Of a DNA stretch of 64,000 bases, positions 11,991 through 32,529 are shown in pieces (the stretch's first letter is position 1; each line of letters opens with the position of its first letter). This DNA is from an uncultured Acidobacteriota bacterium (GTDB lineage: Bacteria > Acidobacteriota > JAAYUB01). The stretch lies in contig CAYTBK010000001.1 of the NCBI GenBank assembly GCA_964436005.1, positions 21,526 through 85,525 of the forward strand, in the 5' to 3' direction. The translations under genes were made by a program, and so were the position numbers. Below the pieces are notes generated by a model. It did not search any database, was not told the origin of the DNA, and saw nothing but the letters and a program-made list of their open reading frames with translations.

Positions 11991-12012
11991 TTACATCAAT
12001 TATTTAAAGCAC

Positions 12013-12050
12013 AAAGAAAGCGTCGCCCGAGCGACGCTTTCTTTCTTTTG
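12013..12050 (+). terminator. rho-independent terminator after fabH
   Basis: Perfect 14-bp stem AAAGAAAGCGTCGC / GCGACGCTTTCTTT with a CCGA loop, followed by CTTTTG. Confidence 0.65.
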
Positions 12051-12184
12051 CACGCCAGAAGGTAAAGAAGCGGGTAGACAAAGACGCAAGACCCACATCG
12101 CAACCGGGTCATTACTTCCGAGGCGATGGCCAGGCGGGGCAACGGGACGGGAATCTCTCGTTTCGACGCTGTAAGTCTTTTGTC

Positions 12185-12213
12185 TTGACAGTAAACAGCA
12201 GAACGCTTAGAGT
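12185..12213 (+). promoter_or_regulatory. sigma70-type promoter for the polysaccharide locus (-35 TTGACA, 17-nt spacer, -10 TAGAGT)
   Basis: Read directly. It lies about 105 nt upstream of the first glycosyltransferase gene. Confidence 0.5.
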
Positions 12214-12317
12214 GCGCCTTTGCAGTCAACGGATCCCCATGGAAGACCAGGCCGCTAGGATATGGGCGATTCGAGCCGGTTAGCGGCGGTTCCTGTTTTT
12301 CTGGAAGCAACCCGACC

Positions 12318-13490
12318 ATGCCAAGCGACAATCCAGCCAAAGTCTGCCATTTTTCCAGTGTTCACAACAATATGGACACTCGCCTGTTTCATCGCGAGTG
12401 CGTCAGCCTGGCCCGCTGGTACAACGTGACCGCCATCGGCCTGGGAACGGGAGAAGAAACCTGCCATGGAGTGCGCCTGGTCGGTCTCTGCAAACCGCGC
12501 AACCGCCTGTTCCGGATGATTCGGACCACGCATCAGGCATACCTCCAGGCCCGGCGGATGGAAGCAGACCTGTACCATTTCCACGACCCGGAACTGATCC
12601 CCTGGGCCTGGCGCCTGCACCGGAGCGGGAAACCGGTCGTGTACGACATTCACGAAAACATGTTCGAAAGCCTCAAAAGCAAAGACTGGCTCCCGTTCAA
12701 GACATTCTTTTCCTGGTGCTATGCGCGCATGGAAGCCTGGGCCGCCCGGCGTTTCCATTTCGTTCTGGCGGAGCGTTCCTACCAGGATGTTTACAAAATA
12801 AAATACCCGTGGAAGGGTTGCACCTTGGTCCAAAATTTCACCCCCCCGGGTTTCCTACATCATTACCAAAAGACCAAACGTCCGGTAGACCCCCTGCAGA
12901 TCTTCTACATGGGGAGTCTTGACTCGTCCTACTGCCTCGAACCCATGCTGGACTCCATCCGAGAACTCCGTCGCCGGCACCGTCCCGTCCGGTTGATATT
13001 GGTGGGGCGTTTGGAGAATCCTCTGCGTGCAGCAATGGAGCAACGATGTTGCCAACATGGGATCGGGGACCTCGTCGAGTTCTGCGGGCACCTCGATTTC
13101 CAACAAGGCTACGCCAGGTCCGTGGACTGCGCCTGCGGCTACTGTTTTGTTGGAGACAACGCCAACATGACGGAATCGGTCCCCCGCAAACTCTACGAGT
13201 ACCTGCAAGTCGGATTGCCGGTCATCAGTTCAGGCTTCCCCTTGTATCGGTCGATCGTGGAGTCCAACAACCTGGGCGTCTGCATACCGGAATGCACGGG
13301 CAACGCCATCGCCGATGCCGTGGAGCAGTTGGTGAGCGACCCGGATGAACTGAACCGGAAAGCCGCCAATGCAGTGTGGACCAGTGAAAACCGATACGAT
13401 TGGGAGACCCAGGCCCAAAAGCTGCGGGACTTGTACCAGGCGATCCTGACCGTTCGCAGGCGTGAGCATCCCGCCGGAACATGCCGGTAG
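12318..13490 (+). CDS. glycosyltransferase family 4 (GT-B, retaining)
   Basis: 390 aa with the GT4 architecture. The C-terminal EX7E-like region (ESVPRKLYEY) is present. Confidence 0.8.
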   Translation: MPSDNPAKVCHFSSVHNNMDTRLFHRECVSLARWYNVTAIGLGTGEETCHGVRLVGLCKPRNRLFRMIRTTHQAYLQARRMEADLYHFHDPELIPWAWRLHRSGKPVVYDIHENMFESLKSKDWLPFKTFFSWCYARMEAWAARRFHFVLAERSYQDVYKIKYPWKGCTLVQNFTPPGFLHHYQKTKRPVDPLQIFYMGSLDSSYCLEPMLDSIRELRRRHRPVRLILVGRLENPLRAAMEQRCCQHGIGDLVEFCGHLDFQQGYARSVDCACGYCFVGDNANMTESVPRKLYEYLQVGLPVISSGFPLYRSIVESNNLGVCIPECTGNAIADAVEQLVSDPDELNRKAANAVWTSENRYDWETQAQKLRDLYQAILTVRRREHPAGTCR

Positions 13491-13530
13491 GGCCGCTGGA
13501 TCAACCGATGGGATCCTCTCGCAACACGAC

Positions 13531-15036
13531 ATGAACACGGAAATAGCCGGTTTTGCGGGAATGATGAAGGCCAGTGGCTTGACGGGCGCGGGCAAGCTGG
13601 CAGATACATTTCTCCGGTATCTGACGCTGCTCGCCATGGCCCGCATGCTGGGCGCCGAGGCTTTGGGGATATTCATTCTGGCACGCACCACAGCCATGTC
13701 GCTCAGTACCGTGGGAAGCCTGGGAATGGGCTACGGCGCGGTGCAGCAGATCGCCTTCCATTCGGCCCGGAAAGACGAGGACAGCGTCCAACAGTGCCTC
13801 CGGATCGTCCTGTTGCTTCCCCTGCTGTGCAGCGTGGCCGTCGCCCTGGCCTTGTATGGATGCTCCGGCACCATCGCCCAGACTCTGTTCCACAAGCCCG
13901 CCCTGGCGATTCCGCTGCGTTTCCTGGCTGTTTCTGTGCCCCTCATGACCTTTGCGTACATCCTCCTGGAAGCTTTGCGCGGTTTCCATTCAATCGCCCA
14001 GCGGGTGGTCCTGGAGTTCTACCTCCTCCCCCTCTCGAATCTCGCCTTCCTGTTTCTGTTCTATGCTTTTGGTTGGCGTCTCGAAGCGGCCGTGATGTCG
14101 TTCACCCTTTCATACTTCGTCACCGCTCTGGCCGCCTGGCGCCATTTCCGACCGATGTTTCGGCGGAAAAGTCCGCACGCCCTTTTCAAAAAGGATTTTT
14201 TCTGGAGCTTTTTCCGTTTTTCCCTTCCCCTCACCTTCCTGAACCTTTTTCTGGAGATCAGGCTGCGAATCGATGTGCTCCTGCTGGGCATGCTGCGCAC
14301 GGCGGCCGACACCAGCGTGTATTTCGTCGGGGTGCGCCTCGGGTATTTTCTCTCCATCCCGCTACAAGCCTCACACATGGTTTTCGCGCCCATGATTTCC
14401 AGCGACTACGCCCGGGGAGACGTCTCTCGCATCGAATCCAACTACAAGAACATCACCAAGATGTTATTCATCGGAAGCATGTTCTGCGGAGGTTTCGTTT
14501 TACTTTTCTCCCGGGAATTCCTGACCCTGTTCGGAGAAGACTTCATCCGGGGCCTGGACGTCGTGGTGCTGGTCTGCTTAGGGCAGATCGTGAAAACCGC
14601 CATTGGCAACGCGGGCCCGATGCTGGTCATGATCGGGAAGTCCACCGCCAACCTGGCGGTCATGATTTTCACCTTGACCCTCCTGGTCCTGCTGAACCTG
14701 CTTCTCATCCCATGGTTGGGGCTGACGGGGGCCGGCATCGCCAATTTCACCGCCGTGACCTTTTCCAGCGTGCTGGAAGTCTGCCTCGTCTACCATTACC
14801 TGCACATCCATCCTTTCCGCCGGGATTTTCTGAAACCGGTGGCCGCGGCAGTCACGTCGGCCGCCCTGGTGTTCGCCGTCAAACAAGCCCTTCCATCCGG
14901 CAATTTCTGGACGGTCGCTTCGATGGCACTGTTTTGCCTCCTGTACGCCACCAGCCTCGCTCTGCTACAATTCACGCCTCAGGAACGCGACCTGCTGGCA
15001 GCGTTGAAGCGCAAAGCGCTCAAATGGACGAGGTGA
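13531..15036 (+). CDS. Wzx-type polysaccharide flippase (MOP superfamily, polysaccharide biosynthesis protein family)
   Basis: About 500 aa and polytopic (12 or more predicted TM segments). The start MNTEIAGFAG lies inside ORF 13462..15036. Confidence 0.75.
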   Translation: MNTEIAGFAGMMKASGLTGAGKLADTFLRYLTLLAMARMLGAEALGIFILARTTAMSLSTVGSLGMGYGAVQQIAFHSARKDEDSVQQCLRIVLLLPLLCSVAVALALYGCSGTIAQTLFHKPALAIPLRFLAVSVPLMTFAYILLEALRGFHSIAQRVVLEFYLLPLSNLAFLFLFYAFGWRLEAAVMSFTLSYFVTALAAWRHFRPMFRRKSPHALFKKDFFWSFFRFSLPLTFLNLFLEIRLRIDVLLLGMLRTAADTSVYFVGVRLGYFLSIPLQASHMVFAPMISSDYARGDVSRIESNYKNITKMLFIGSMFCGGFVLLFSREFLTLFGEDFIRGLDVVVLVCLGQIVKTAIGNAGPMLVMIGKSTANLAVMIFTLTLLVLLNLLLIPWLGLTGAGIANFTAVTFSSVLEVCLVYHYLHIHPFRRDFLKPVAAAVTSAALVFAVKQALPSGNFWTVASMALFCLLYATSLALLQFTPQERDLLAALKRKALKWTR

Positions 15037-15037
15037 C

Positions 15038-16042
15038 ATGATCAGGTTCTGGTTCAGCAAGGAAGCCTTGACGGGGGGGAACATATACAACCGCATGGCC
15101 ATGGACGTGCTGCGAGCGCGGGGGGTCGAAATCCGGGAGGAACTGGGCTACACCTCCTATCGGGGGAAAGGGTTCTCCTACGTCAACGGCATGTACTTGC
15201 ACTGCTGCAAGTCTAGCGGTTTGCATGACATTGACATCATGGACTATGGCACTTCCACCTGGTCCTCGCGCAGGTTCAAGGGAAGGAGAATCATCACTCT
15301 TTTTCACTACGACCCGGACGAGCAAGGCAAAGCCTGGCGTTACCGCTTTTTTTTCAAACGTTTTCTGCGCGCGGCAAAAAACGCGAAAATCGTCGTCATC
15401 TCCAGGCATTGGAAGCGGTACCTCGAAGAGCAGGGCATTGCGAATCTCGCTTTGATCCCCTGCGCCTTCGACACGTCCAGGTACCAGGCTTCCTGTCAGC
15501 GGGAGGAACTTCTTCAGCGTTTCGGATTGCCCGACCTCCCCATCGTCTACTTGGGAAAGAACTCGCGCCCCAAGACGCTATCTGCCTACCGGAGCCTGCA
15601 ACATCTGTCGGGCGAATGCCTTCTCGTGACGTCGGGACCAACCCGGGAGTTCAGCGGGCCCGTGCATCTCTCCCTGGATTTTCCGGACTACGTTTCCCTC
15701 CTGCACCATGCCTGCGTGACGGTTGTGATGCCCGACTTCGCGGAAGGGTGGAGCCGGATTGCGCACGAGAGCGTGCTGTGCGGCACACCCGTTCTGGGGA
15801 ACGGACGTGGAGGAATGGGGGAACTGCTGGAGACACTGAACCAGACCCGCATCACGCCGAGCGATTCCGCCACCCTGGTCGCCGCCGTTCGGTCAGCCAT
15901 CGCCAACGCGGGGAGGGTGCCCGAACCCGATCGGCAACGAGCCGGCGACTACGACCTCAAGGCCTTCGGCGACCGTTGGCTGGACGTGGTCTGCGAAGTC
16001 GCCGAGGGTCTGCCGGCCGGAGCGAAGGGGAAAACCCGGTGA
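15038..16042 (+). CDS. glycosyltransferase (GT-B, GT4-like)
   Basis: 334 aa. The ATG is 1 nt after the wzx stop. The C-terminal GT-B half carries an acidic motif. Confidence 0.6.
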   Translation: MIRFWFSKEALTGGNIYNRMAMDVLRARGVEIREELGYTSYRGKGFSYVNGMYLHCCKSSGLHDIDIMDYGTSTWSSRRFKGRRIITLFHYDPDEQGKAWRYRFFFKRFLRAAKNAKIVVISRHWKRYLEEQGIANLALIPCAFDTSRYQASCQREELLQRFGLPDLPIVYLGKNSRPKTLSAYRSLQHLSGECLLVTSGPTREFSGPVHLSLDFPDYVSLLHHACVTVVMPDFAEGWSRIAHESVLCGTPVLGNGRGGMGELLETLNQTRITPSDSATLVAAVRSAIANAGRVPEPDRQRAGDYDLKAFGDRWLDVVCEVAEGLPAGAKGKTR

Positions 16043-17349
16043 CAGCCCATCTATTCAAAGAAGGCCGCCTTCCCGACCAGGCCGCCTGGATCCTTTTTTC
16101 CCTCCTTCTCAACACGCTGCTGTTTAATTGCCGGTTTTCCTCAACGGTCAACCTGTACCTGTCCGACATTTTCCTCGTGGGCCTGCTCGGGCTGGCGGCC
16201 CTCCGTTGGAGATCTGTGCTGGAGCCGTCGAACCGGGTTTGGGGTTTTCTGTTCGGCAGCCTGCTCCTCTACTATTCAATCCTGAGCGTCTATGCCTGTT
16301 TCGCCCCGGGATACAAAGGCACCCTGATCGTGGGTCACTTTCGCTACCTTTTCTTCTACCCGCTGGCTTTTTTCGCCGGTCTGAGCTTCACGATCTCCGC
16401 CGCCGCCAGGGAACGATATGTGCTGTTCATCCAAGTACACGTTCTGCTGGCCATGGTTTCCGGAATGATCGGAATATCGTTCCCGGGCTTGGCCCTGACC
16501 AGCGTGTACGAGGGAGGAAGAATCGTCCCGCCGCAATATTTCATGCTGGTAACGCCGGAGACTGCGCTCCTGTGCTGCTTCCTCTTCGCCCATGCGGCCC
16601 TTTCCCTCGCGACGGGGCGCGGGGCCCGGCCCCGGCACGTCTTTTTTCTGGCGGCCAGTCTGGCCGGCATCCTCGGAACCCAGAACCGAAGCGTGCTGAT
16701 CACGTTGCTTCTGACGACCGGCCTCCTTTTCTGGGCCGGGCGCAAGGCGGGACCGGAAACGCGGACACGCCTGAAGGGGCCGCTGCTCGCCATGGCGCTC
16801 CTGCTGGGGTGTTTCAGCCTGGTCGGTTTCCTGTCCCCCCTGAGGGAAAAATTCCAGAAAAGGTTCGACGACACGATCAGTTTTTTTACCAACGAAAAGC
16901 CCTTTTTCCGCACCATCCCGGGAATACGCCTGGCGCGGAGCCTGGAGACAATCAGGGTGTGGAAAGAATCGCCCCTTCTGGGACAACGCTGGGGGGAAAC
17001 GCCACCTGTTTTCCCGATCCGGGACTGGTCCGGCAAGGTGCTTAAAACCCTCGGGGGGACATCGCACAACTACTACCTGGTTCTCCTGTACAGCACTGGC
17101 CTTGTCGGCTTCGCCCTGGTGATGCTCCTGCACTGGATACTGGGCGGGAAAGTCCGGCCAACCTCAGGGCTGGATGGTCCCAACGTCATTTCCTACGCCC
17201 TGTACCTGTTCTATGCAGGCGTCATGGTGCATGCCGTCGCTAACGTCCAATTGTACGGCCACCCGGTGTTCATCCCCGTCTTCTTCTTCCTCCTGGGTGC
17301 AGCCGCCGCTCGCTTCCCGGCCGTTGCGGAGCAGGAGGCGCAACCGTGA
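16039..17349 (+). CDS. O-antigen polymerase/ligase family protein (Wzy-like), copy 1
   Basis: GTG start overlaps the previous stop (GTGA). It is polytopic, with the Wzy_C-like motif GTSHNYYLVLLYSTGLVGFALVML. The GC-rich 5' part of track ORF 15409..17349 is excluded. Confidence 0.65.
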   Translation: MTAHLFKEGRLPDQAAWILFSLLLNTLLFNCRFSSTVNLYLSDIFLVGLLGLAALRWRSVLEPSNRVWGFLFGSLLLYYSILSVYACFAPGYKGTLIVGHFRYLFFYPLAFFAGLSFTISAAARERYVLFIQVHVLLAMVSGMIGISFPGLALTSVYEGGRIVPPQYFMLVTPETALLCCFLFAHAALSLATGRGARPRHVFFLAASLAGILGTQNRSVLITLLLTTGLLFWAGRKAGPETRTRLKGPLLAMALLLGCFSLVGFLSPLREKFQKRFDDTISFFTNEKPFFRTIPGIRLARSLETIRVWKESPLLGQRWGETPPVFPIRDWSGKVLKTLGGTSHNYYLVLLYSTGLVGFALVMLLHWILGGKVRPTSGLDGPNVISYALYLFYAGVMVHAVANVQLYGHPVFIPVFFFLLGAAAARFPAVAEQEAQP

Positions 17350-18398
17350 AGAGCTTGTTGCTGTTCGACGCGGAAGTGCAGCCATATCGCCAGCCCATCT
17401 ACGAATGGCTGGCCGGGGAGTTTGCCCGGCATGGGTACCGTCTCCACATCGTCTACGACACCCGAAGAAACCACTTGGCGGGCGGGTTGTACACCGGCGT
17501 CCGCTTCAGTTTCCGCTCTTTTCGGAGAATTGCCGCCGAACACGATTGCCGTGTGATGATCCTGTTCGTCTGGCTCCGGTACAAATTTTTGCTCCCCTTC
17601 ATGATGTACGCCCGGTGGAAGGGGATTCGCATGGTATCCTGGTGCCACGGAATTAATTTACAGAAGAAAGATCAATTTTGGGTGAACAAGCTTTACTATA
17701 TCCGGCAGAAGCTGGCCCATGCCGTTCTCCTGTACTCGGAAAGCGAGAGGAAACATGTGCGCACCAAGGCTGCCAAGGTTTTCGTCGCGAACAACACCCT
17801 GAATTTCGAGGCAATCCCGTCCATCCTGTCCTCCCGAGAGGAGTTGAAGGAAAAGTACGGTCTCGCGGGAAAGAAGGTGGTGCTGTGCGTAGGTCGGATG
17901 GACGTCAACAACCGCAAACCCCAGTACCTGGTTGACGGCTTCGAGCGGTTCCCTTTTCCGGGAGGCTTCCTCCTGCTGGTCGGGCCGGGACTTGACCCAG
18001 TCCTGGTTCGCCGAATGGAGAACCGGGAAAACATGCGCGCGGTTGGACCCATTTACGATCCCATCCCCGTCAACGAATTGTTTCGGCTAGCGGACGTGTT
18101 CTGCATGCCGGGCGCCATCGGCCTGGCGATAAACCAGGCGTTTTATCATGGGCTACCCGTTGTGCTGGAAAACGTGAATCACGGGCCGGAAGGCATCTAT
18201 TTCCAGGAAGGGCGAAATGGCCTGCTTTTCCGCGAAGGGGATGTTGAAGACATGATGGCAAAGCTGAAACAGCTTTGCAGCGATGAAGCCCTTCAGCAGT
18301 CCTTTTCCGCCCAGGCGAAAAAAACGGTGGGCCGGCAGGCCCGGATGGATCTGATGCTGGCCGGGTTTCTCCAGGCGGTCCGTTATGCAGAACACTGA
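17346..18398 (+). CDS. glycosyltransferase family 4
   Basis: 350 aa. GTG start overlaps the upstream stop. It has a GT4 C-terminal domain. Confidence 0.8.
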   Translation: MKSLLLFDAEVQPYRQPIYEWLAGEFARHGYRLHIVYDTRRNHLAGGLYTGVRFSFRSFRRIAAEHDCRVMILFVWLRYKFLLPFMMYARWKGIRMVSWCHGINLQKKDQFWVNKLYYIRQKLAHAVLLYSESERKHVRTKAAKVFVANNTLNFEAIPSILSSREELKEKYGLAGKKVVLCVGRMDVNNRKPQYLVDGFERFPFPGGFLLLVGPGLDPVLVRRMENRENMRAVGPIYDPIPVNELFRLADVFCMPGAIGLAINQAFYHGLPVVLENVNHGPEGIYFQEGRNGLLFREGDVEDMMAKLKQLCSDEALQQSFSAQAKKTVGRQARMDLMLAGFLQAVRYAEH

Positions 18399-19620
18399 CG
18401 ACGCCGATCGGATCGAGAACACGGTAAACCGGTTCGTCGGCTGGTTGCGCAGTTACGGTTACACCTCATACGACCAATTCGACTTCTGGGGATCCGCGCT
18501 CGGGGTGTTCGGGAAACGACTGTTTCTCAAGAACAAGATGGCAGCGGCCCCCCTCGTGCTGGGGTTGCAGTTGCTGGAGAGCTTCCTGCCCCGGGCCAGG
18601 TGCCTTTTCGCCACGAAGAAACGTTTCGCCATCGGTGACGCACATTTCGCCCTGGGTTTCCAGAACCGCTTCCGACTCCGGCAAAGGCCGAAGGACCTGG
18701 AAGAATCCCGGCGGCTCCTGCAGGCCCTGCTCTCTTGCGCCACCCCCACGCCCGGAGGGATGGGCTGGGGATACCCATACACCTGGGTCACCGCCTCGGT
18801 GGAATACCCGCCCGGAACCCCCTTCGTCACGGTCACCCCTTACGGCTATGATGCCCTCGTAGGAATGCACGATTTGACCGGCGAAGATCAGTGGCTGGCG
18901 GCAGCCCGGAGCGTCGCCGGTTTCGTGGCAGACGACCTGGCGGAAACCGTCCTTCCCGACGGGGCAGTAGCCGCAGGGTACGGGTTAGGGGACCACAAGC
19001 AGGTGGTCAACGCCAACGCCTACCGGGCCGCCCTCCTGCTGGACGCGCACCACCGTTTCGGCGAAACGCCCTGGCGCGACAAGGCTCTGGGCAACCTGCG
19101 CTTCGTCCTCGGGCAACAGCGTCCAGACGGGTCATGGCCCTATGCGCCTGACGAGCCGTTCATCGACCACTTCCACACCTGTTTCGTTCTCAAGAATCTC
19201 TACCGCAGCTACCAGGTCATGAAAGACCCCGACCTCTTGGCCGCGGTGAACCACGGGTACGCCTACTATCGCCGGCGCCTGTTCCGAAGCGATGGATCGC
19301 CTCGTCACTTCGCTCGGTCCACCCGGCCCAAGTTCCGCCGGATCGAGATGTACGACTACGCGGAAAGCATCCTGCTGGGCGTCCTGCTGCGGGACGAGAT
19401 CAAGAATGCCCTCCCCTTCTCCTTGGCGTTGGCAGGGCAGCTCGTCGGAAAATACCAAATGTCCGCCGGGTATTTCGTCACCAGGGTCACCCCGCTGCGC
19501 ACCCGCAATACGGTCCCCTACCTCCGCTGGCCCCAGGCCCAGTTGTTCCACGCCCTGACCGCCCTGCTCCTGGCCCTCTCCCCCAGTTGCCCCAAGATAC
19601 CGGACCAGACTGAACGCTGA
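18385..19620 (+). CDS. conserved hypothetical protein (possibly alpha/alpha-toroid, lyase/hydrolase-like)
   Basis: 411 aa. It has no TM segments and no recognisable catalytic motifs. It is Trp/Tyr-rich. Confidence 0.6.
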   Translation: MQNTDDADRIENTVNRFVGWLRSYGYTSYDQFDFWGSALGVFGKRLFLKNKMAAAPLVLGLQLLESFLPRARCLFATKKRFAIGDAHFALGFQNRFRLRQRPKDLEESRRLLQALLSCATPTPGGMGWGYPYTWVTASVEYPPGTPFVTVTPYGYDALVGMHDLTGEDQWLAAARSVAGFVADDLAETVLPDGAVAAGYGLGDHKQVVNANAYRAALLLDAHHRFGETPWRDKALGNLRFVLGQQRPDGSWPYAPDEPFIDHFHTCFVLKNLYRSYQVMKDPDLLAAVNHGYAYYRRRLFRSDGSPRHFARSTRPKFRRIEMYDYAESILLGVLLRDEIKNALPFSLALAGQLVGKYQMSAGYFVTRVTPLRTRNTVPYLRWPQAQLFHALTALLLALSPSCPKIPDQTER

Positions 19621-19629
19621 GGAGGGACC

Positions 19630-21492: not shown

Positions 21493-21504
21493 CCCGCCTG
21501 GCCC

Positions 21505-21541
21505 GGAAACCGGAAGCGGGCTGCCATGGCAGGGTGTTTCC
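21505..21541 (+). promoter_or_regulatory. stem-loop (GGAAAC...CTGCCATGGCAG...GTTTCC) abutting the GTG start of the DUF354 gene
   Basis: A 12-bp perfect palindrome sits inside a 6-bp outer stem and ends 1 nt before the start codon. It could occlude the RBS. Confidence 0.25.
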
Positions 21542-23807: not shown

Positions 23808-23837
23808 GATATCTATCTCGTTTAGAAATTTATATTT

Positions 23838-24371
23838 TCAAGAGAAATCCGGACAACCACCGCGAATGGGCGCAGCGGGCACATCGGCCGGTTTCGGAAG
23901 GAGACGCAGGAGACGAGCGGGGTTGCCGGCCCAAACCCCCGGTTGCGCGATGTCCCTGGTCACTACTGACCCGGCCCCGATGACCACCCCGTCGCAAACT
24001 GTGACCGGGAGCAATGTCGCGTTGGATCCGATGGAGACCCTGTTGCCGATACGGGTTGCCCGCCAGAGGGCGCGATCGCCTCCGGCCGGCCCCCCGCGGG
24101 AGAAGAGATCGTTGACGAACATCACCCCGTGCGCGATGAAGCAATCTTCCCCCACCTGTACACCTTCGCAAAGAAAGCTGTGGCTTTGTATCCGGGTCCG
24201 CGCACCGACGACAACGTTCCGCTGGATCTCCACGAAAGGCCCGACGAAGGCCCCGTCTCCTAGTGTACATTCGTAGAGATTGACAGGTTCCACCAGGGTG
24301 ACCCCTTCCCCGAACATGACGCCGCGTATGCCGCTGGAGATGATTCTAGGGTTTCCGCCGTTCTTGTCCAT
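23838..24371 (-). CDS. hexapeptide-repeat sugar N-acetyltransferase (WbpD/PglD-like)
   Basis: LbH repeats are present (VGEDCFIAHGVMF..., IGNRVSIGSNATLLP). The start is MDKNGGNPR. Confidence 0.8.
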   Translation of the reverse strand: MDKNGGNPRIISSGIRGVMFGEGVTLVEPVNLYECTLGDGAFVGPFVEIQRNVVVGARTRIQSHSFLCEGVQVGEDCFIAHGVMFVNDLFSRGGPAGGDRALWRATRIGNRVSIGSNATLLPVTVCDGVVIGAGSVVTRDIAQPGVWAGNPARLLRLLPKPADVPAAPIRGGCPDFS

Positions 24372-24376
24372 GTTCG

Positions 24377-25444
24377 TCAACCTCTCACGCCCAGACGGCA
24401 CAGCCTGGGTCGGAATGCCAGCGCGATCTCCTGCCCCGTTTCGATGGATTCGTAGATCGCGTTGATGAGGGCCAGGGATTTTCGGCCCTCCAGGCCGTCC
24501 ACCAGGGCGGGAGCGTTATTGCGCAGGCTCTCCACTACATTCCGGAGGAAGCTGAGATGGCCGAACCCATAAACGTCGGGCGGATTCTGATTGTAGCAGG
24601 TCCTGATTTCCTCGTCTTCAGGAAGAGCGGGGAAGAAGGACCAGGTCCGGATCTCGTTGACGGCGAAACCGGATATTTCCACCGTGCCGTTTTCGCCCAG
24701 GATGGAGATGGATCCTTCCAGGTCCGCGGGCCGGGTGGCCGTGGTGGCCTCCACGACGCCGAGGGCGCCACTGGCGAAAGAGATGACGGCCACACCGGTG
24801 TCCTCAGTCTCGATGTTGGCCAGCGCGGTGCGGCTCCGCGCGAAAACGGACACCGGTTCGCCCAGCATCCACTCCAGCAGGTCGATGTGGTGGCTGGCCT
24901 GATTTGTGAAAACGCCGCCGTCCATGGCCCAGGTCCCCCGCCAGGCATCGTGGTCGTAATATTCCTGCCGCCGGCACCACCGCACGCGGACGGTCCCCAT
25001 GACGATCTTTCCGAACCGTCCCCGAACCAGGGCCTCCTTCAGCTTGACCACAGGCAGATTGTAGCGGTTCTGCTTGACTACGAACAGTTTGACCCCGGCA
25101 CGGTCGCAGGCTTCGATGAGGCGGTCGGCATCCTCCAGTCGCAGGGCCAGGGGCTTTTCCACCACGACATGCCTTCCCAGCGACGCCACATCCATGGCGA
25201 TGGCAGCGTGGCTCCCGCTCTCGGTGAGGATGTTCACCGCCTCGACTTCCGGGTGCCGACCGAGCATCTCCCGATAGTCGGTGAACCATGGCACGAGATG
25301 CTTCTCGCCGAAAGCCCGGGCGCGGTCCGGCATCAGGTCGCACACGGCCGCGAGCCGGGCGCCTGGCACCGCACCGCTCAGGAGCGCGGCGTGTTTGGAT
25401 GCAATACGTCCGCAACCGACGATAGCAAAAGGGATGTCGTTCAT
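24377..25444 (-). CDS. Gfo/Idh/MocA-family NAD-dependent sugar oxidoreductase (WbpB-like)
   Basis: N-terminal Rossmann motif AIVGCGRIASKHA and the EKPLA motif are present. Confidence 0.85.
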   Translation of the reverse strand: MNDIPFAIVGCGRIASKHAALLSGAVPGARLAAVCDLMPDRARAFGEKHLVPWFTDYREMLGRHPEVEAVNILTESGSHAAIAMDVASLGRHVVVEKPLALRLEDADRLIEACDRAGVKLFVVKQNRYNLPVVKLKEALVRGRFGKIVMGTVRVRWCRRQEYYDHDAWRGTWAMDGGVFTNQASHHIDLLEWMLGEPVSVFARSRTALANIETEDTGVAVISFASGALGVVEATTATRPADLEGSISILGENGTVEISGFAVNEIRTWSFFPALPEDEEIRTCYNQNPPDVYGFGHLSFLRNVVESLRNNAPALVDGLEGRKSLALINAIYESIETGQEIALAFRPRLCRLGVRG

Positions 25445-25523
25445 CTTTATCCTTCCTTGACCCTGCTTGGGGCGGCCCCTGGTTTTCGCAGCGGATCCTG
25501 GGGCGTAGAATCTGCCCTCAGTC

Positions 25524-27527
25524 CTACTCGCTGCGGATCCGGTTGAAGAGAATGTTGTACAAACCCCAAAATAGAACCCGAATATCCGTCAGGATGGGAT
25601 GCGCTTTCTTTTCTTGAAGATAACGGATTTCCGAATCGATGTATTCCTCTACCCTTTGCGTGCGGTACGCCACATAAGGGGGGATGCATCCAGGCTTTCG
25701 CTTTTGTCTCTCTGCCCGCAACCACTCCGGATAATTCGCCAGGAAGCGGTTGCTGAGAGGGCGCACCCCCACCAGGGCCATGTCCCCTTTCAGCAGGTTC
25801 ACCACTTGAGGGATCTCGTCAAGCCAGAACCGGCGTAAGAACCGCCCCCAGGCGGTCACCCGGATATCCTCCTTGACCTTGCCCAATTCACCATATCCGA
25901 ACAAGGAGGTCACGTAACCTTGCAGGTATTCCGAGTATGGGTGCATGGTGCGGATTTTGTAGACATAAATGAGTTTCCCGCCCTTGCCCGTGCGCTGCAT
26001 CTTGAAGAGCAGGCCCGAGGCGGGTTGTCGCCCCAATTCGGGCTCCCCGGTACGGCGGGCGCAGAAATGTACCGCACTGTCGTGGAATTCGATCCCGACG
26101 ATGGAAAACCCGCAATAACTGAGCCGGCCGAAGCCCTCGGCCAGGGAGAAGACCCGGGTTCTGCCCGGCGGGAACAATTGCCGTACTCTCCGGAGTAAGA
26201 TTATTTTCGGCAACAGACGGAACCAAATGAAATCCAAGAAGTAAAGGAAATTGGCCACTGCTCGCGGATAATGCTGGACATAGTGGAGGCGGCGCAGTTC
26301 GCAAGGCTGGAAATTGCCCAGGAAAACTCCTCCGGGAACAAGCTTCCGATGGACTTCCCGCAAGTACCGGTTGAGATCCCGCTGGGTATTGAGGCGGTGC
26401 CGGTTCATGAAGAACTCCATGGTCCCGTCAGGCATTACCTCGACATTGTAGGGATTGCTGGAGTCAAGAACCTCGGCCCGTACGATATCTACGGATTCGA
26501 TGTCCACCGTTCGTTGCACAAAGGCCATGATCTCGGGACAATCCTTCAGGTAAATATGTTTCATCTTTTCGGCAAACTGGGGGGAGGCTGAATCACGTTT
26601 CTCGAAGCGGACGGGGCCGGCGAAGGCTGCCATATGCTGGGTGACAAGCACATCTACCTTCGCCGCTTCCGCCAGCTCCGGTACGCGGAAAATAGAGCCG
26701 AGCTTCTCGCCTGGTTTCCCGAAAACGTAATAAAGGGTGACGAAGGCGAGTTCCAACACAGCCACGACGAACAAGGGCAGAAGATATCTCCTGGGTGAGG
26801 AACCGGTCAGCTTGAAGATATACAAAACTGCAACGCTGCAGCAAAGCACAACGGCCAAACTCTTCACATGGGGATATATCATTTTCAGGCAACTGGATTG
26901 CCATTCCAGCCGGAAGTGATGGATCAACAAGCCAGCAAGAAGCCATATGAAATAAACATAAAAAAATGGGATGGCTGAGGGGTGCTCCTCGCCGTTCAGT
27001 CCGAATTGGTTGATGTAAGCCAAAGTGTAAAGAGCAGCGAGCGATGACAACTCAAGGCCAAAAAAAGCAAAAGAGAGAAGCCGTTCCCTCCGGCTGACGC
27101 CTTCACTGAAAAAAGGGAGGTAATCCCCAGAAAGAAAAAGGATTTCCAACAGCAGATACAGAGAGAGTGCCCCATAGATGATGAAACGTGAAAGATCGAA
27201 GAGATCCGCCACATACAGAAACAGAGAGATCAGGCCCGCCATGTACAGACAACTGGTGACAAAGGGCGCCAGTTTGTGGCTCTGGCGGCGTTCTTGATCC
27301 AAGCGACGGAATTTGTCGCATGCCAGACTGACACTGGCCCAAGCGACAATGTAGACCAACATCAACTGTAAATAAGTGAGATCGATGGCTAATTTCTTTT
27401 TCTTGAGGCAATGAGTGGCCAGGAAAGCAACGAGGAGAAGGCAGAGGTCCACCAGATACCTTCGGGCAACCGTTCTGGGTCGGCCTGATGATTGAATGGG
27501 TGCCCACGATGGTCGGAGACCCGGCAT
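25524..27527 (-). CDS. initiating polyprenyl-phosphate sugar phosphotransferase (bacterial sugar transferase family) with atypical N-terminal architecture
   Basis: The C-terminal catalytic domain reads GKGGKLIYVYKIRTM...WLDEIPQVVNLLKGDMALVGVRP (KFRTM-type motif). It is preceded by about 8 predicted TM helices and a ~190-aa soluble region of unknown function. A good SD (AAGGGAGAAAG) is present. Confidence 0.75.
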   Translation of the reverse strand: MPGLRPSWAPIQSSGRPRTVARRYLVDLCLLLVAFLATHCLKKKKLAIDLTYLQLMLVYIVAWASVSLACDKFRRLDQERRQSHKLAPFVTSCLYMAGLISLFLYVADLFDLSRFIIYGALSLYLLLEILFLSGDYLPFFSEGVSRRERLLSFAFFGLELSSLAALYTLAYINQFGLNGEEHPSAIPFFYVYFIWLLAGLLIHHFRLEWQSSCLKMIYPHVKSLAVVLCCSVAVLYIFKLTGSSPRRYLLPLFVVAVLELAFVTLYYVFGKPGEKLGSIFRVPELAEAAKVDVLVTQHMAAFAGPVRFEKRDSASPQFAEKMKHIYLKDCPEIMAFVQRTVDIESVDIVRAEVLDSSNPYNVEVMPDGTMEFFMNRHRLNTQRDLNRYLREVHRKLVPGGVFLGNFQPCELRRLHYVQHYPRAVANFLYFLDFIWFRLLPKIILLRRVRQLFPPGRTRVFSLAEGFGRLSYCGFSIVGIEFHDSAVHFCARRTGEPELGRQPASGLLFKMQRTGKGGKLIYVYKIRTMHPYSEYLQGYVTSLFGYGELGKVKEDIRVTAWGRFLRRFWLDEIPQVVNLLKGDMALVGVRPLSNRFLANYPEWLRAERQKRKPGCIPPYVAYRTQRVEEYIDSEIRYLQEKKAHPILTDIRVLFWGLYNILFNRIRSE

Positions 27528-27578
27528 GCTATACTTTCTCCCTTTTCATTGACAGATTGGATGCGGAAATCTGCTCAC

Positions 27579-28907
27579 TCAGTTGCTGGCCTGCGCAGCG
27601 GAACAAGCCTGGCCTTCGTCCCGGGAAGCGTCTTTTCCCGCCCAGACTGCATGGGAAACGGCAGCACCCAAAAGCATAAAGAATATCGGCACGGTGACGG
27701 GGTTCGAATCCATCAGGGTATTCGCACCATTGAATACCAGCAGACCGATCAGAAAAATGAAAAAACTGAAAACTGTGTCCTTGCCCATTGCCAACTTTCC
27801 ACGCGGCCAAGAGCACTGCAGGATTTTCCCAAAAAATACCATCATGACAGCAAACCCTATGATTCCTGTCTGATAAAGAATGGTCACGTAATAGTTATGC
27901 GATGTTCCATAGACGGAACGCACATAGTGCCCCTTCAGGTCGTATATCTTGAACTCCTTCATCTGCCTACCCCACCCACAACCAAGGATGGGGTATTTCG
28001 ACCACTCCCGCAGGGTAGCCACGGTGCGTCCGACACGTATTCCCAAATTGGTGTTAAAGAACGATCTTCTTCCGGATACTGTGTCTTTCGTCTCAGCGAT
28101 CCTCTTCTTGTAAAGTTGGTTCACCGAAGGTAAGAACATCGCAAGGGAAATGGCAGTCACCAGCAGTAGGGTCAGACCCGCACCGTAAAGAACCCGTTTG
28201 CGAACGGCCTTTTCCGCCCGGATACCATATCCACAGACCAGAAGGATCATGATACCGAAAACGACAATGGTGCTCCTATGCTGGCTTCCGATAATTCCCG
28301 CCAGGGAAGCGGCGAGAAATGGGGACGCGCTGAGGAAGCGGCGGCGGCGTACCGCCACGGAGACGAACTCGAAGACGAAGACCAGGCAGCAGAGAACCGC
28401 GGTGCCATGATTCACGAGCATGAAGTAGGAGGCGGGAATGCTGACCCCCCGGAAATAGACGGTGGCAGGATTGGTTCCGGCCAAAGCGAGGCAGAACAGG
28501 CCGTAAAGCACAGAGATCAGGACATGGAACCGCACGGCCCAAACCAGCCATTTCACATCCTCTCGTTCGATGACACACACCAACCCAGCCAAAAAGAGGA
28601 GTGGGTAGATGAAAAGGTTGCGGAAACGGTCCAGGATAGCCAACAGGCTACTTTCTTGGATATAACGAGCGCATAGCATCAGGAAAGTGTAATAGACCAG
28701 AAGGACGGCAAAGACGAGCAACCAGGGCCTGGCCCGGTCCCTAGTTTCCTTCTGTCGCAAGCAGACCGCGGCAAAGCCCAGGAGGGCCAGGACAAAAAAA
28801 TCCGAAAGATAGAGTTTGATTCCGACTTCAAACAGGCAGTTGCTCAGAAGGGTATTGAGCAAAAGAAAAAAAACAAGGAAGAAGCCTGCCCGCTGCATTG
28901 GCCGCAT
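27579..28907 (-). CDS. O-antigen polymerase/ligase family protein (Wzy-like), copy 2
   Basis: It is a paralogue of the 16039..17349 product (LLNTLLSNCLF, GTSHNYYVTILYQTGIIGFAVMMV) and is polytopic. Confidence 0.65.
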   Translation of the reverse strand: MRPMQRAGFFLVFFLLLNTLLSNCLFEVGIKLYLSDFFVLALLGFAAVCLRQKETRDRARPWLLVFAVLLVYYTFLMLCARYIQESSLLAILDRFRNLFIYPLLFLAGLVCVIEREDVKWLVWAVRFHVLISVLYGLFCLALAGTNPATVYFRGVSIPASYFMLVNHGTAVLCCLVFVFEFVSVAVRRRRFLSASPFLAASLAGIIGSQHRSTIVVFGIMILLVCGYGIRAEKAVRKRVLYGAGLTLLLVTAISLAMFLPSVNQLYKKRIAETKDTVSGRRSFFNTNLGIRVGRTVATLREWSKYPILGCGWGRQMKEFKIYDLKGHYVRSVYGTSHNYYVTILYQTGIIGFAVMMVFFGKILQCSWPRGKLAMGKDTVFSFFIFLIGLLVFNGANTLMDSNPVTVPIFFMLLGAAVSHAVWAGKDASRDEGQACSAAQASN

Positions 28908-29303
28908 GTTTCCCGCCGTTAAAATGACTGGTCGCTTCCGGAGCTTTCACCGACCCGCCGGCGCCGCTCACTTCAGATAATCGGAATGCTACACGAAACC
29001 GATACCATGTTCAAGATCAGTATTGAGAATGGGTAAGGTTCATTTTCCATGAGAGGCCTGGCTGGCGAGCCAATGGGCTTTCACCGGGCTTCCCAGCTCA
29101 ACCCCACACGCCCCGAAACTCCAACCTGAATTGTCCCCGCTTGCACGTCCCCCCGCCACCGAGACGCCCGCAACGCGCAATTCCCTTGCGTTTTCAGCCA
29201 GGTCTTCGTAGTCTTCCAATGCTGTCGAATGAACGCTCCGAATGTTCTTTTCTCAAGAAAACCTGTGTTTCCGACCCTCTATTTCCGCCCGAAGGTAGAA
29301 GTG

Positions 29304-31781
29304 ATGACCCGTTGCCCGGCCCGATTTTTCCGACGAAAACGTTTCCCTCGGCCCGATACCGCGAAATCCGCCCTGTCCCATGTCCTCCGGCCATCGCAGC
29401 GTTGGTCGGCGCGGATATTGATAGGCCCGCTTTACTTCTGGCTGTTATTGCTGTCCAGCGACTCGCCCCTGGCGCAAAGCCTGTTCAACGTGAAGGCGCA
29501 AAAGCAGTTGTTCCCCCCGGAGAACCAGGCGGTGACCGTGACGCCACCCGCATTTTCCTGGGTTCCCGGGAGCGGGGTCGGGGAGTACACGCTGCAACTC
29601 TCTCCCTCGCCGGATTTCCTTCCGAAGCGGACGGAAACCTGGACTGGGATCAGACGGCCGGCTTTTGTCCCCAGCCATCCACTGGCCTCGGGAAAATGGT
29701 ACTGGAGGGTCGGCGTTCAAGGAGAAAACCGCTTCGGCCCAACCCACTCTTTCATTGTTCCCAAGAACACAAAGCCGTTCCCTTTCCCCGATTGGGAAAA
29801 AGTCATCCGCAGGACTCCCCGCCGACACCCGCGGCTGTTTTTTCCCGGGGCTCGGCTGGCTCAAGCCAAGCGGTGGGCGAAAACTGACTGGAAAACCGAC
29901 CTGGACAAGCTGGAATCCCGCTGTCTCAAGGAAATGGGGAGCCCCCTCCCCCCCGAACCCGGGCCCCCGCCCCCACCAATAGCGTTAGGGCCATGGTCTG
30001 TCCAGGTGATCCAAACGACACGCCCCCCCCTGGACCTCATGGAGAACTGCGCGCTCCTCTACCTGCTTCGCGGGAACCAGAGGCTGGGGCTTGAAGCTCG
30101 GCGCATACTGCTGCACTTCTTCTCGTGGGACCCGGACGGACCCACGAGCCAATCGTCTTTCGACGAGCCCGGCATGTGGATGATGATGCGCGGGGTACGG
30201 ACCTATGACTGGACCTTCGACCTGTTCTCGCCAACAGAAAGGGACCGGATCGAAAAAGTGATGAAAAGGAGGGCTCGCCAGTTTCTGGAACGCTTGCAGG
30301 CCCTCCCTTTCGAAACCAATCCATTCAGCAGCCATGCCGGACGGCTGCCTGGATTCCTGGGCGAATGCGCCCTGGCCTTCGCCGGCGAATGGCCTGAAGC
30401 GCGCCCCTGGTTGGAGTACGCAACACTCCTGTTTTTCACATCGTATCCGGCCTGGGGCGGGGACGAGGGGGGCTGGCAGGAAGGCCCCCACTACTGGAAC
30501 GCTTATATGTCCTTTGCGTTGCACTACATTGTCGCCCTGCGCAATGCGACCGGCGTCAACCTGGCCAGAAAACCGTTCTTTGCCCAAACGCCCTTCTATG
30601 CGTTGTACACGGCCCCCCCCTACCGCCAGTTCAGCCCTTTCGGCGACACTTCGGAACGAACGTCCTTCGGCAGCGTAATGTACGCATTTTCCTCTCTTCT
30701 CCGAAACCCACACTTACGTTGGTACGCTGAACACGAGCATACGGCTTTCGGGTCGGACCTGTTGAGTCTGGCCACCTGGAATCCAGGTTTAACCGCTCGC
30801 ACACCGATAGAGTTGCCACCGGCCCGGTTGTTTTCGGACGTGGGTCTCGCTTCGATCCACACGGCTCTGGGCGATGGAGAGCAAGACATCCACTTCCTGT
30901 TGCGCAGCAGCCCCTACGGCAGCGTAAGCCACGGACACGCGGATCAGAACGCCTTTGCCCTGGAAGCCTTCGGCCGCGGCCTGGCGATTGCCACCGGATA
31001 TTACCCATGGTATGGGTCCCCGCACCACGACCGATGGACCCGCTCCACCCGGGCCGTCAACAGTCTGCTGGTCGACGGGGAAGGGCAAGCAGCCAGGAGT
31101 TGGAAAGCCCAGGGCCGGATCACGGCCTTCGCGTCGACGGACGGCTACGATTATGTGGCCGGCGAGGCGGCCTCGGCGTATGCAGGGAAGCTGAAGCGTT
31201 TCCGACGGCAAGTGGTTCACCTCCGTCCTGGTGTGTTCGTCCTCCTGGACGAGGTCCAGGCCAAGGAGCCCGCCCGTTTCCAGTGGCTGTTGCATGCCTG
31301 CCACGAGATGCAGGTGCGGGAAGGCGAAAGGAGGATTCTCGTCCGCAACGACCCGGCAGCGATGGAAGTGATCCTTCTGGAGCCTGGAGAACTGACGTTC
31401 ACGCAGACCAACCGCTATATGCCGGAACCGGAATTGCCTCCTGGCAGCTGGGAAAACACCTGGCACCTTCAGGCGGAAACCGTCCCCCGCTCTTCGACAG
31501 GGCGGTTCCTGGCGGTGCTGCTCGTCCACCGCGTAGGGGAAGAACAGAATATGCCCCAGGTTTCGCCCCTGATTGCGACCGGCGGCAGTGGCGCCATCCT
31601 GCGTTATCCATCCGGGAAAACGGACCTGGTTCTATTTCGAACAGGACCGGAAGTTCGCGGAATCCAGCATGAGGGCATCCAGACTTCGGCGGAGGTTTAC
31701 GCGGAGGGAAGGGATGAAACGGGCGCCCTCTGTCGAAAGTTCACCTTCCCGCAAAACGAAGGACGCGATGAAACCCGGTAA
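29304..31781 (+). CDS. heparinase II/III-family polysaccharide lyase-like protein, exported
   Basis: The motif HGHADQNAFALEAFG and the family architecture are present. The signal-like segment is ARILIGPLYFWLLLLSSDSPLAQS. I chose the ATG at 29304 (GAAGG SD) rather than the track start 29229. Confidence 0.75.
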   Translation: MTRCPARFFRRKRFPRPDTAKSALSHVLRPSQRWSARILIGPLYFWLLLLSSDSPLAQSLFNVKAQKQLFPPENQAVTVTPPAFSWVPGSGVGEYTLQLSPSPDFLPKRTETWTGIRRPAFVPSHPLASGKWYWRVGVQGENRFGPTHSFIVPKNTKPFPFPDWEKVIRRTPRRHPRLFFPGARLAQAKRWAKTDWKTDLDKLESRCLKEMGSPLPPEPGPPPPPIALGPWSVQVIQTTRPPLDLMENCALLYLLRGNQRLGLEARRILLHFFSWDPDGPTSQSSFDEPGMWMMMRGVRTYDWTFDLFSPTERDRIEKVMKRRARQFLERLQALPFETNPFSSHAGRLPGFLGECALAFAGEWPEARPWLEYATLLFFTSYPAWGGDEGGWQEGPHYWNAYMSFALHYIVALRNATGVNLARKPFFAQTPFYALYTAPPYRQFSPFGDTSERTSFGSVMYAFSSLLRNPHLRWYAEHEHTAFGSDLLSLATWNPGLTARTPIELPPARLFSDVGLASIHTALGDGEQDIHFLLRSSPYGSVSHGHADQNAFALEAFGRGLAIATGYYPWYGSPHHDRWTRSTRAVNSLLVDGEGQAARSWKAQGRITAFASTDGYDYVAGEAASAYAGKLKRFRRQVVHLRPGVFVLLDEVQAKEPARFQWLLHACHEMQVREGERRILVRNDPAAMEVILLEPGELTFTQTNRYMPEPELPPGSWENTWHLQAETVPRSSTGRFLAVLLVHRVGEEQNMPQVSPLIATGGSGAILRYPSGKTDLVLFRTGPEVRGIQHEGIQTSAEVYAEGRDETGALCRKFTFPQNEGRDETR

Positions 31782-32529
31782 AAATACCGTCTGGAACCGA
31801 ATCAGGCGCAAGTTGTCACGGTGGATCGCTTGCGATCCCCGCGTGGAGCAGTTTTTCACCCTGCCGTTTCGGTTCTTCGATCAACGCGGCTATATTGTCA
31901 ACGAAAGAATCATCGAGATGCCGTTCATCTTCTCGGAATTGGGCGCCAGGCCAGGGAAACTCAAGATTCTGGATGTCGGTTGCACGAACAGTTGGTTGTC
32001 CATCTCCCTGGCTTCTTTGGGTCACGAGGTCTACGGAGTCGATATGCGCTCATATTCGTTTTCTCACCCGAATCTGGTGTTCTTTCAAGGGGATGTGCTG
32101 AATCTGAAAGAAACCGGCTTCGACGCCGTTGTCGCCCTGTCGACCCTGGAACATGTGGGCCTGGGCGCCTATGGTGAAGAAAAAGGAAACGCGACGCTGG
32201 AACTTGTGCTGGACAAACTCCACCATGCGCTTCTGCCTTCCGGAAGATTGCTGATCACCGTCCCGGCTGGGCAGCCGGAGTCGGACTCATTCCAGAGGAC
32301 CTTCGCCCCGGAGGAGATCGAGGGGATCGTTAGCGCTCACAACTTTCATCTCCTGACCGGACGGTACTTCCGCAGGCACGAGAATGTCCGGTGGACCCCC
32401 TGCACTGCTGACGAAATCCTCTGCATGTCCAACCGCAGGAAGCCAGGGCAGACGGAAAGCATCGGGTCCAACGGGGTCGCCTGTTTAATGTTCCAGAAAA
32501 AGGCCTCCCACCCGGACGTCCAGACCTGA
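31768..32529 (+). CDS. class I SAM-dependent methyltransferase
   Basis: Motif I is ILDVGCTNSW and motif II/III is VVALSTLEHVG...LLPSGRLLI. The start MKPGKNTVW overlaps the end of the lyase gene. Confidence 0.75.
   Translation: MKPGKNTVWNRIRRKLSRWIACDPRVEQFFTLPFRFFDQRGYIVNERIIEMPFIFSELGARPGKLKILDVGCTNSWLSISLASLGHEVYGVDMRSYSFSHPNLVFFQGDVLNLKETGFDAVVALSTLEHVGLGAYGEEKGNATLELVLDKLHHALLPSGRLLITVPAGQPESDSFQRTFAPEEIEGIVSAHNFHLLTGRYFRRHENVRWTPCTADEILCMSNRRKPGQTESIGSNGVACLMFQKKASHPDVQT

Follow-up and report, generated by a model that had tools for sequence, protein, structure and literature searches.

The 64-kb stretch of contig CAYTBK010000001.1 analyzed here (the window) had been described in an earlier note as carrying a polysaccharide biosynthesis block at positions 12185-32529. 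The GC content of the window is about 65%, so the raw lists of open reading frames (ORFs) were crowded with shadow frames, and ORFs were filtered by their GC content at third codon positions (GC3). Gene families were assigned by Pfam and NCBIfam scans, and the rest of the window was annotated gene by gene. The block was borne out: positions 12318-32529 are tiled by 15 contiguous genes, organized in three transcription units. The first, on the plus strand, comprises eight genes (12318-22717), encoding GT4a, Wzx, GTb, Wzy1, GT4c, a 411-aa protein, AsnB and a DUF354 protein. The second, convergent with it on the minus strand, runs from 28907 to 22641 and comprises five genes, encoding Wzy2, a 667-aa phosphoglycosyl transferase (PGT), a GFO/IDH/MocA oxidoreductase, a hexapeptide acetyltransferase and a DegT aminotransferase. 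The third is a divergent plus-strand pair (29229-32529) for a DUF4962/heparinase II-III-like protein and a methyltransferase. Noncoding stretches of notable size are limited to 11991-12317 and 28908-29228, which leaves no room for an overlooked gene in the island. Family matches recovered the Wzx, two Wzy-like proteins, PGT, sugar module, amidotransferase, lyase and methyltransferase listed in the earlier note, which had left out the 411-aa protein, and its statement that Wzz, Wza and Wzc are absent held for both the island and the rest of the window. The locus is thus of the Wzx/Wzy-dependent polysaccharide type, which is itself well known, and it leaves the general picture unchanged.

Hundreds of homologues of the 411-aa protein were found, and through them we reached the uncharacterized related loci, from metagenomes, L085 (GCA_964502145.1), L087, L089, L097 and L098; a protein of L089 is named by NCBI as coming from an uncultured Desulfobacter. 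The gene order in these loci is Wzx, methyltransferase, GTb, Wzy_C, GT4c, (alpha/alpha)6 protein (the 411-aa homologue), sometimes a sulfotransferase or methyltransferase, AsnB, DUF354 and PGT. Seven to eight island genes recur colinearly in them, at 35-67% identity and in contigs of 36-50% GC.

Three of the island proteins are glycosyltransferases of the GT4 type. GT4a (12318-13490, plus strand; Glycos_transf_1, E = 6e-16) had no homologue in six related loci and, among them, is specific to this window. GTb (15038-16042, plus strand) is divergent, with sub-threshold GT4 matches only (E = 6e-5 to 8e-4), and is 46-50% identical to the syntenic gene product in four related loci. GT4c (17346-18398, plus strand; Glyco_trans_1_4, E = 2e-16) is 43-56% identical to its counterparts in five of them. 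The earlier note had counted four GT-B glycosyltransferases; besides these three, the island encodes the DUF354 protein (21542-22717, plus strand; DUF354, E = 7e-9), which is GT-B-like and a candidate transferase or epimerase. An all-against-all BLASTP of the island proteins paired Wzy1 and Wzy2 only, so the glycosyltransferases are not recent duplicates of one another. The Wzx-type flippase (13462-15036, plus strand; Polysacc_synt, E = 8.5e-17) has a multi-span profile with at least nine hydrophobic segments and shares 45-51% identity with its counterparts in L085, L087 and L098.

Wzy1 (16039-17349, plus strand; Wzy_C, E = 4e-10) has a GTG start that overlaps the GTb stop codon, and Wzy2 (27579-28907, minus strand; Wzy_C, E = 3e-15) is encoded by the first gene of the convergent unit. 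The two are full-length paralogues (36% identity, E = 1e-72), and they are 35-42% identical to the Wzy of the related loci (39-42% for Wzy2 against L085, L087 and L098). As the distance between the two matches their distance to Wzy proteins in other loci, a recent duplication is not indicated, and the comparison suggests that they have separate origins. Wzy1 occupies the position of the Wzy_C gene in the related loci and is probably the repeat-unit polymerase. A PDB search with the Wzy2 sequence gave no match, and a profile of six Wzy_C proteins matched only 7TPG, deposited as 'polymerase/ligase', over the Wzy_C region (E = 1.3e-6). Sequence alone cannot separate polymerases from ligases in this family, but in the related loci with Wzx, including two with Wzz, the Wzy gene is located between two glycosyltransferase genes, a position that favors polymerases.

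The initiating PGT (25524-27527, minus strand), unusually long at 667 aa, has about eight N-terminal hydrophobic segments and a catalytic domain at residues 505-659 (Bac_transf, E = 6e-26), with an additional 45 residues or so separating a candidate re-entrant helix from the catalytic core. Its soluble central region (residues ~270-505) gave a sub-threshold match resembling class I Methyltransf_11 (19 bits). Full-length homologues are 36-39% identical, and the 660-677-aa architecture recurs in L089, in the further locus L095 and in the proteins P0147 and P0148. In L095, the long PGT (39%) and DUF354 (44%) co-occur beside Wza, Wzc and CpsB.

The three remaining genes of the minus-strand unit encode a putative sugar-nucleotide module. 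The 3-dehydrogenase (24377-25444, minus strand; GFO_IDH_MocA domains), of the WlbA/WbpB-like type, matched PDB entries 3Q2K (E = 1.9e-92) and 3Q2I (E = 1.1e-84), which we take to be the WlbA dehydrogenases of Bordetella pertussis and Chromobacterium violaceum, acting at position 3 of UDP-GlcNAcA, the uronic acid of UDP-N-acetylglucosamine (UDP-GlcNAc); 3O9Z scored only 2.6e-11. The WbpE-like DegT sugar 3-aminotransferase (22641-23807, minus strand; DegT_DnrJ_EryC1, E = 2e-96) had DesV, QdtB and WbpE as the named sugar aminotransferases among its top PDB matches (E = 1e-64 to 6e-80), but the C3 aminotransferases DesV and QdtB scored higher than the WbpE structures (E = 1.2e-64). The left-handed beta-helix acetyltransferase (23838-24401, minus strand; Hexapep, E = 3e-18), a hexapeptide-repeat sugar N-acetyltransferase that may be WbpD/WlbB-like, matched the sugar N-acetyltransferase 3MQG (WlbB) with E = 4.7e-10, and generic hexapeptide enzymes scored alike. 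In the UDP-ManNAc3NAcA pathway set out in PMC10622841, which has five enzymes, the trio would take steps two to four.

The AsnB/WbpS-like glutamine-dependent amidotransferase (19630-21492, plus strand; Asn_synthase, E = 4e-70, with GATase domains) is 59-67% identical to the AsnB of the related loci. It resembles the eps_aminotran_1/WbpS group, but its score against TIGR03108 eps_aminotran_1 (369 bits, under the 816.9 cut-off, with the best stretch limited to the N-terminal 376 of the 628 model positions) does not establish orthology to WbpS-type enzymes. An AsnB-type WbpS encoded beside wbpE and wzx was found by deletion to be needed for the uronamide of a linking sugar derived from 2,3-di-N-acetylglucuronic acid (PMC7468200). 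The DUF354 protein is 44-64% identical to its homologues in L085, L089, L095 and L098. No PDB relative was identified by sequence or profile, and a literature search on DUF354 returned only unrelated DUF354x families. This protein may be either a glycosyltransferase or a nucleotide-sugar epimerase, and it is a candidate substitute for the 2-epimerase of the pathway. Its gene and that of DegT are convergent and share 77 nt at their 3' ends (22641-22717), because the DUF354 protein has a 28-aa proline-rich C-terminal extension here; this extension is confined to this copy, and the homologues in L085, L089 and L095 lack it.

The first gene of the divergent pair encodes an 850-aa PL15-like polysaccharide lyase (29229-31781, plus strand; DUF4962 and Hepar_II_III_C), residues 96-766 of which align with the PL15 oligo-alginate lyase Atu3025 (PDB 3A0O, E = 6.5e-80). 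The residues aligned to His311, Arg314, Tyr365 and His531 of Atu3025, presumably the catalytic ones, are identical. The lyase has an additional N-terminal hydrophobic segment (about residues 62-80), a signal or an anchor, and probably therefore acts outside the cytoplasm. A uronate-specific lyase, an amidotransferase that requires a carboxyl group and a WlbA-type dehydrogenase converge on a uronic-acid-containing polymer. The class I methyltransferase dependent on S-adenosylmethionine at the right end of the island (31768-32529, plus strand; Methyltransf_11, E = 7e-7) is 48-50% identical to those adjoining Wzx or Wzz in L085, L087 and L097.

The 411-aa protein (18385-19620, plus strand) has no Pfam or NCBIfam family match and no signal peptide, and PDB searches by sequence or profile gave no match. 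A confident AlphaFold2 model based on a 55-sequence alignment (predicted local distance difference test score, pLDDT, 93.9) is an (alpha/alpha)6 barrel, for which the best structural matches were GH76 and AGE-family enzymes, at 9-16% identity. Weak matches to PF06662, the C-terminal domain of D-glucuronyl C5-epimerase, were obtained for 35 of the 55 family members, and about as many matched GH127 and GH88; the protein of the window matched none of these. Assignment to the D-glucuronyl C5-epimerase family was therefore not adopted, and uronate C5-epimerization is one hypothesis for the reaction. Among 1.84 billion representatives, 723 clusters at E <= 1e-30 belong to this widespread family, and the protein is 51-62% identical in the related loci. 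The start of its gene overlaps the GT4c stop by 14 nt, and a GT4/(alpha/alpha)6 overlap is also present in the related loci. Fusions follow the same gene order: GT4 and barrel (P0159, P0167), TPR, GT4, barrel and sulfotransferase (P0281), and barrel and GT2 (P0117). We infer an enzyme of the cytoplasm that works on the lipid-linked unit in concert with GT4c.

Sulfotransferase genes lie directly beside the (alpha/alpha)6 gene in L087 (11143-12144), L089 (9034-9963) and L097 (5812-6741); no sulfotransferase was found in the window locus. These neighbors, together with the P0281 fusion, hint at sulfated, glycosaminoglycan-like bacterial polymers. In L085, an inserted gene for a 528-aa protein with Schlafen/AlbA_2, HATPase_c_4 and HTH domains (8469-10055) separates the (alpha/alpha)6 gene from that of GT4c and breaks the overlap conserved elsewhere.

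The island is also distinct in base composition, AT-richer than its flanks, as had been claimed from its appearance. With the rest of the window, that is, the flanks, as the baseline, GC was 0.594 in the island and 0.644 outside it; the lowest-GC 20.3-kb stretch of the whole window begins at 11901, and at 32401 the cumulative GC curve changes direction. Mean GC3 fell from 0.84 in the flanks to 0.74 in the island (Mann-Whitney p = 6e-5). The steps at the borders were abrupt, from fabH (0.90) to GT4a (0.72) on the left and from the methyltransferase (0.72) to pgsA (0.98) on the right, and most genes had values of 0.80-0.98. A+T accounted for 26% of third positions in the island and 13% in the flanks, reaching 35% in the PGT and Wzy2 block, the most deviant part, where the lowest GC3 values of the island were found (0.65 for PGT and 0.64 for Wzy2). 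The earlier note attributed part of the deviation to the codon composition of membrane proteins. This explanation fails, because the flanking membrane protein PgsA has a GC3 of 0.98. The difference between island and flanks also held for soluble proteins only (0.746 versus 0.836, p = 4e-4; 0.860 for the flanks without the ribosomal operon).

Synteny was compared on the right, where the earlier note had placed aspS next to the island. AspS is in fact encoded by the third gene out (34230-35972), after pgsA (32571 to about 33230), the direct neighbor, and a gene for a cyclic nucleotide monophosphate (cNMP)-binding/DUF4388 protein (33239-34225). Exact matches were confined to Logan fragments of the metagenome runs SRR10083292, SRR10083294 and SRR10083296. 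By aspS, the nearest genome is a metagenome-assembled genome of an uncultured Acidobacteriota (67%), followed by Blastocatellia (56%), with other phyla at 50-54%. A scan of genome and metagenome contigs with the cNMP/DUF4388 protein yielded no usable relative, and a large protein search with this lineage-specific protein returned 24 homologues only; the closer relatives that it gave (75%) lay on short contigs. Four contigs were informative: L090 (75% aspS identity), L093 (67%), L003 (67%) and L094 (64%). All four keep the order aspS-cNMP/DUF4388-pgsA and diverge directly after pgsA, so the right boundary of the island is a synteny breakpoint, and no island gene was found in any of them within the 2.7-10 kb that follow pgsA. 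The locus is therefore not a conserved core at this position in these relatives, and its absence is supportive of acquisition, not decisive. Neither of the outcomes that the earlier note had named as refuting its reading, equal GC3 in soluble proteins and a conserved locus in relatives, was thus observed.

The related loci point in the same direction. The colinear core present in contigs of 36-50% GC, together with the low-GC deviation of the island, fits acquisition from lower-GC donors, and the AsnB identity to these loci equals or exceeds the aspS identity to the nearest genome (67%) and to other phyla (50-54%). However, the content differs. The related loci carry Wzz, extra methyltransferases, sulfotransferases or a 463-476-aa PGT of the CoA_binding_3 and Bac_transf type, whereas the island (GC 59%) has GT4a, the Wbp-like trio, the long PGT, a second Wzy and the lyase. 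GT4a, the trio, Wzy2 and the lyase were not found in L085, L087, L089, L097 or L098, and neither was the long PGT, apart from the architecture recurring in L089. Wzz is present in L085 and L087, and Wza and Wzc in L095. As the core matches one set of loci, and the long PGT and DUF354 recur in L095, the island is a mosaic.

We therefore consider it likely that the block is a mosaic, horizontally acquired locus for a Wzx/Wzy-dependent heteropolysaccharide of the O-antigen, capsule or exopolysaccharide (EPS) type, in a genome that is probably acidobacterial. The analysis shows the gene identities, the paralogy, the composition, the synteny with foreign loci and the absence from related contigs, whereas the structure of the sugars, the sequence of reactions and what the lyase does are inferred as follows. 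The 667-aa PGT would prime undecaprenyl phosphate, and the three GT4 enzymes, possibly with the DUF354 protein, would assemble four to five sugars into a repeat unit at the cytoplasmic side of the membrane. The GFO/DegT/hexapeptide trio would supply a UDP-2,3-diacetamido-2,3-dideoxy-hexuronic acid by Wbp/Wlb-type chemistry, the carboxyl group of which would be turned into an amide by the WbpS-like AsnB; the methyltransferase and the GT4-coupled (alpha/alpha)6 protein may modify the unit further. Wzx would then flip the unit and one or both Wzy_C proteins would polymerize it. A complete pathway would also need genes elsewhere in the genome for the control of chain length and for export or ligation (Wzz/Wzc/Wza or WaaL). 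The secreted PL15-like lyase may trim or clear the uronic-acid polymer, as AlgL does for alginate. The genes for chain length, export and ligation, which would tell an O-antigen, a capsule and an EPS apart, lie outside the window. Two steps of the sugar pathway weigh against this scheme: the window contained no protein of the UDP-glucose/GDP-mannose dehydrogenase family that could be the UDP-GlcNAc 6-dehydrogenase WbpA (step one), and no Epimerase_2 match for the 2-epimerase WbpI (step five). Support for a uronic acid therefore comes from the match of the 3-dehydrogenase together with the amidotransferase and the lyase.

Several further observations count against acquisition and would be accounted for by a native, vertically inherited core lipopolysaccharide (LPS) or EPS locus, in which low GC3 would reflect weak expression or relaxed codon selection, and the likeness to low-GC loci an ancient pathway. 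A tRNA scan found no tRNA gene in the window, no recombinase family indicative of an integrase, transposase or insertion sequence (IS) element was found among the island genes by Pfam and NCBIfam, and no flanking direct repeats were seen by eye in the boundary sequences. The total GC of the sugar-nucleotide trio (0.639) is close to that of the flanks, lpxD lies 3 kb to the left, and the native rpsP-(small ORF)-rimM-trmD-rplS-rnhB operon (56889-59756) has GC3 values of 0.69-0.75, as low as those of the island. Low GC3 alone is therefore no proof of foreign origin; highly expressed genes here seem to favor codons poorer in GC, a complication when foreign DNA is sought by its GC3. Furthermore, the available relatives (64-75% aspS identity) have lost synteny on both sides of the three-gene block and are too distant for a clean test. 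Of the classical features of a mobile island, the locus shows deviant composition and absence from relatives, and lacks the integrase, tRNA and repeats; such a lack is usual among polysaccharide loci that are exchanged by recombination. A native origin appears unlikely in view of the sharp GC3 steps at both borders, a third-position A+T content double that of the flanks, the coincidence of the island with the lowest-GC 20-kb stretch of the window, the close AsnB match to low-GC loci, that of Desulfobacter included, and the lack of the island in all four related contigs. Horizontal acquisition, with which the earlier note had found the AT-richness consistent, is supported and most likely.

The other alternatives concern the product. 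In an O-antigen locus, one Wzy_C protein could be the polymerase and the other a WaaL-type ligase to lipid A-core, which would explain the lack of Wza and Wzc. Pfam Wzy_C spans both ligases and polymerases, the only solved structure matched by the Wzy_C profile is 7TPG, which we take to be a WaaL, no export genes are present in the window, and the nearby lpxD points to lipid A synthesis. However, Wzy1 and Wzy2 are full-length paralogues, each as similar to the single Wzy_C of the related loci, located at the Wzy position between glycosyltransferase genes, as to each other, and ligases and polymerases usually share far less than 36% identity; we consider such a division of labor improbable. It is still less probable, and in our view very unlikely, that the locus, instead of making a polysaccharide that is free or linked to LPS, belongs to an EPS system of the PEP-CTERM/exosortase (XrtA) kind or serves the glycosylation of proteins or an S-layer. 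The best specific NCBIfam matches of GT4a, AsnB and PGT are the XrtA/PEP-CTERM-associated models TIGR04063, TIGR03108 and TIGR03025/TIGR03013, and Wbp/WbpS sugars have been tied to protein anchoring (PMC7468200), but the scores fall far under the cut-offs (46 versus 442, 369 versus 817 and 117 versus 296 bits, respectively). No exosortase, PEP-CTERM protein or oligosaccharyltransferase was found in the window, and the Wzy_C genes argue for polymerization.

The proposed heteropolysaccharide locus can be compared with several known systems. The wbp genes of Pseudomonas aeruginosa O5 and the wlb genes of B. pertussis, which serve glycans with ManNAc3NAcA, also encode a 3-dehydrogenase, a 3-aminotransferase and an N-acetyltransferase acting on UDP-GlcNAc(A) (PMC10622841), and the P. 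aeruginosa trio, like that of the window, is located in a Wzx/Wzy-dependent cluster. Unlike these loci, the window has neither the WbpA 6-dehydrogenase nor WbpI/Epimerase_2; its dehydrogenase groups with the B. pertussis and C. violaceum enzymes (3Q2K, 3Q2I) and not with WbpB (3O9Z), it adds the (alpha/alpha)6 protein, DUF354, the PL15 lyase and a second Wzy, and its glycosyltransferase set is unrelated. For the uronamide-forming amidotransferases WbpS, WbqG and PGN_1234, as in the window, a glutamine-dependent enzyme of the AsnB type is encoded beside wbp-type genes and wzx, and deletion showed that PGN_1234 is required for the uronamide (PMC7468200). The exolytic PL15 enzyme Atu3025 of Agrobacterium resembles the window lyase over its full length, with the His, Arg, Tyr and His residues kept, but the lyase has about 95 extra N-terminal residues and is encoded in a biosynthetic rather than a catabolic locus. 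AlgL, from another lyase family, occupies a similar position in the alginate operon.

The left boundary of the island is formed by the intrinsic terminator of fabH (12013-12049, plus strand), with a perfect 14-bp stem, a 4-nt loop and a following CUUUU; its hairpin (12013-12044) has a folding energy of -25.4 kcal/mol (z = -5.4 versus shuffles). It is followed by a candidate sigma-70-like promoter for the plus-strand operon (12185-12213, plus strand; TTGACA-17-TAGAGT), identified by consensus match only (10 of 12 positions). Both signals lie where the earlier note had placed them. The 5' leader (12220-12320) folds no better than shuffled sequence (z = +0.45), and an attenuator or riboswitch there was therefore discarded. 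The 321-bp intergenic region between the divergent Wzy2 and lyase operons (28908-29228) contains no ORF and a single weak promoter-like match (28898-28925).

Other features of the window were noted. Chemotaxis genes are found at both ends (cheW at 1455-2000; cheB and cheD at 62032-63571), and lpxD is located at 7971-9047. Motility or chemotaxis is probable for the organism, as is the synthesis of lipid A. About 1 kb without a convincing ORF (36660-37700) separates a small secreted-protein ORF from a blaI/blaR1-like pair (37707-40246), and a direct repeat of 21-44 nt, ATCCATGCCCTCCGGGCAAAA and variants, is present in four copies, at 37047, 37364, 37416 and 37467. The genes thiC (51258-52583) and thiE (52562-53191) belong to one operon (51258-53494); a search of the whole window against Rfam found no family at the gathering threshold, the thiamine pyrophosphate (TPP) riboswitch included.

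To our knowledge, the surface-polysaccharide loci of uncultured Acidobacteriota are almost unstudied. The locus described here leads to a testable prediction, a polymer containing a 2,3-diacetamido-uronamide, and indicates that such loci are assembled from cassettes common to distant, lower-GC bacteria. One lead stands out from this ordinary background: the barrel family coupled to GT4, the most novel item of the locus, taken together with DUF354. Both are families of unknown function with conserved neighbors, to which the barrel adds its domain fusions, and would be good starting points for enzymology. We suggest, tentatively, that this widespread barrel family may be a cytoplasmic, GT4-partnered glycan modifier that forms, with DUF354 and AsnB, an undescribed polysaccharide cassette moving horizontally across phyla; this is a possibility rather than the expected outcome. 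If it is true, a C5-epimerase activity would imply a glycosaminoglycan-like logic in these bacteria, in which a transferase is followed by an epimerase and then by a sulfotransferase or an amidotransferase.

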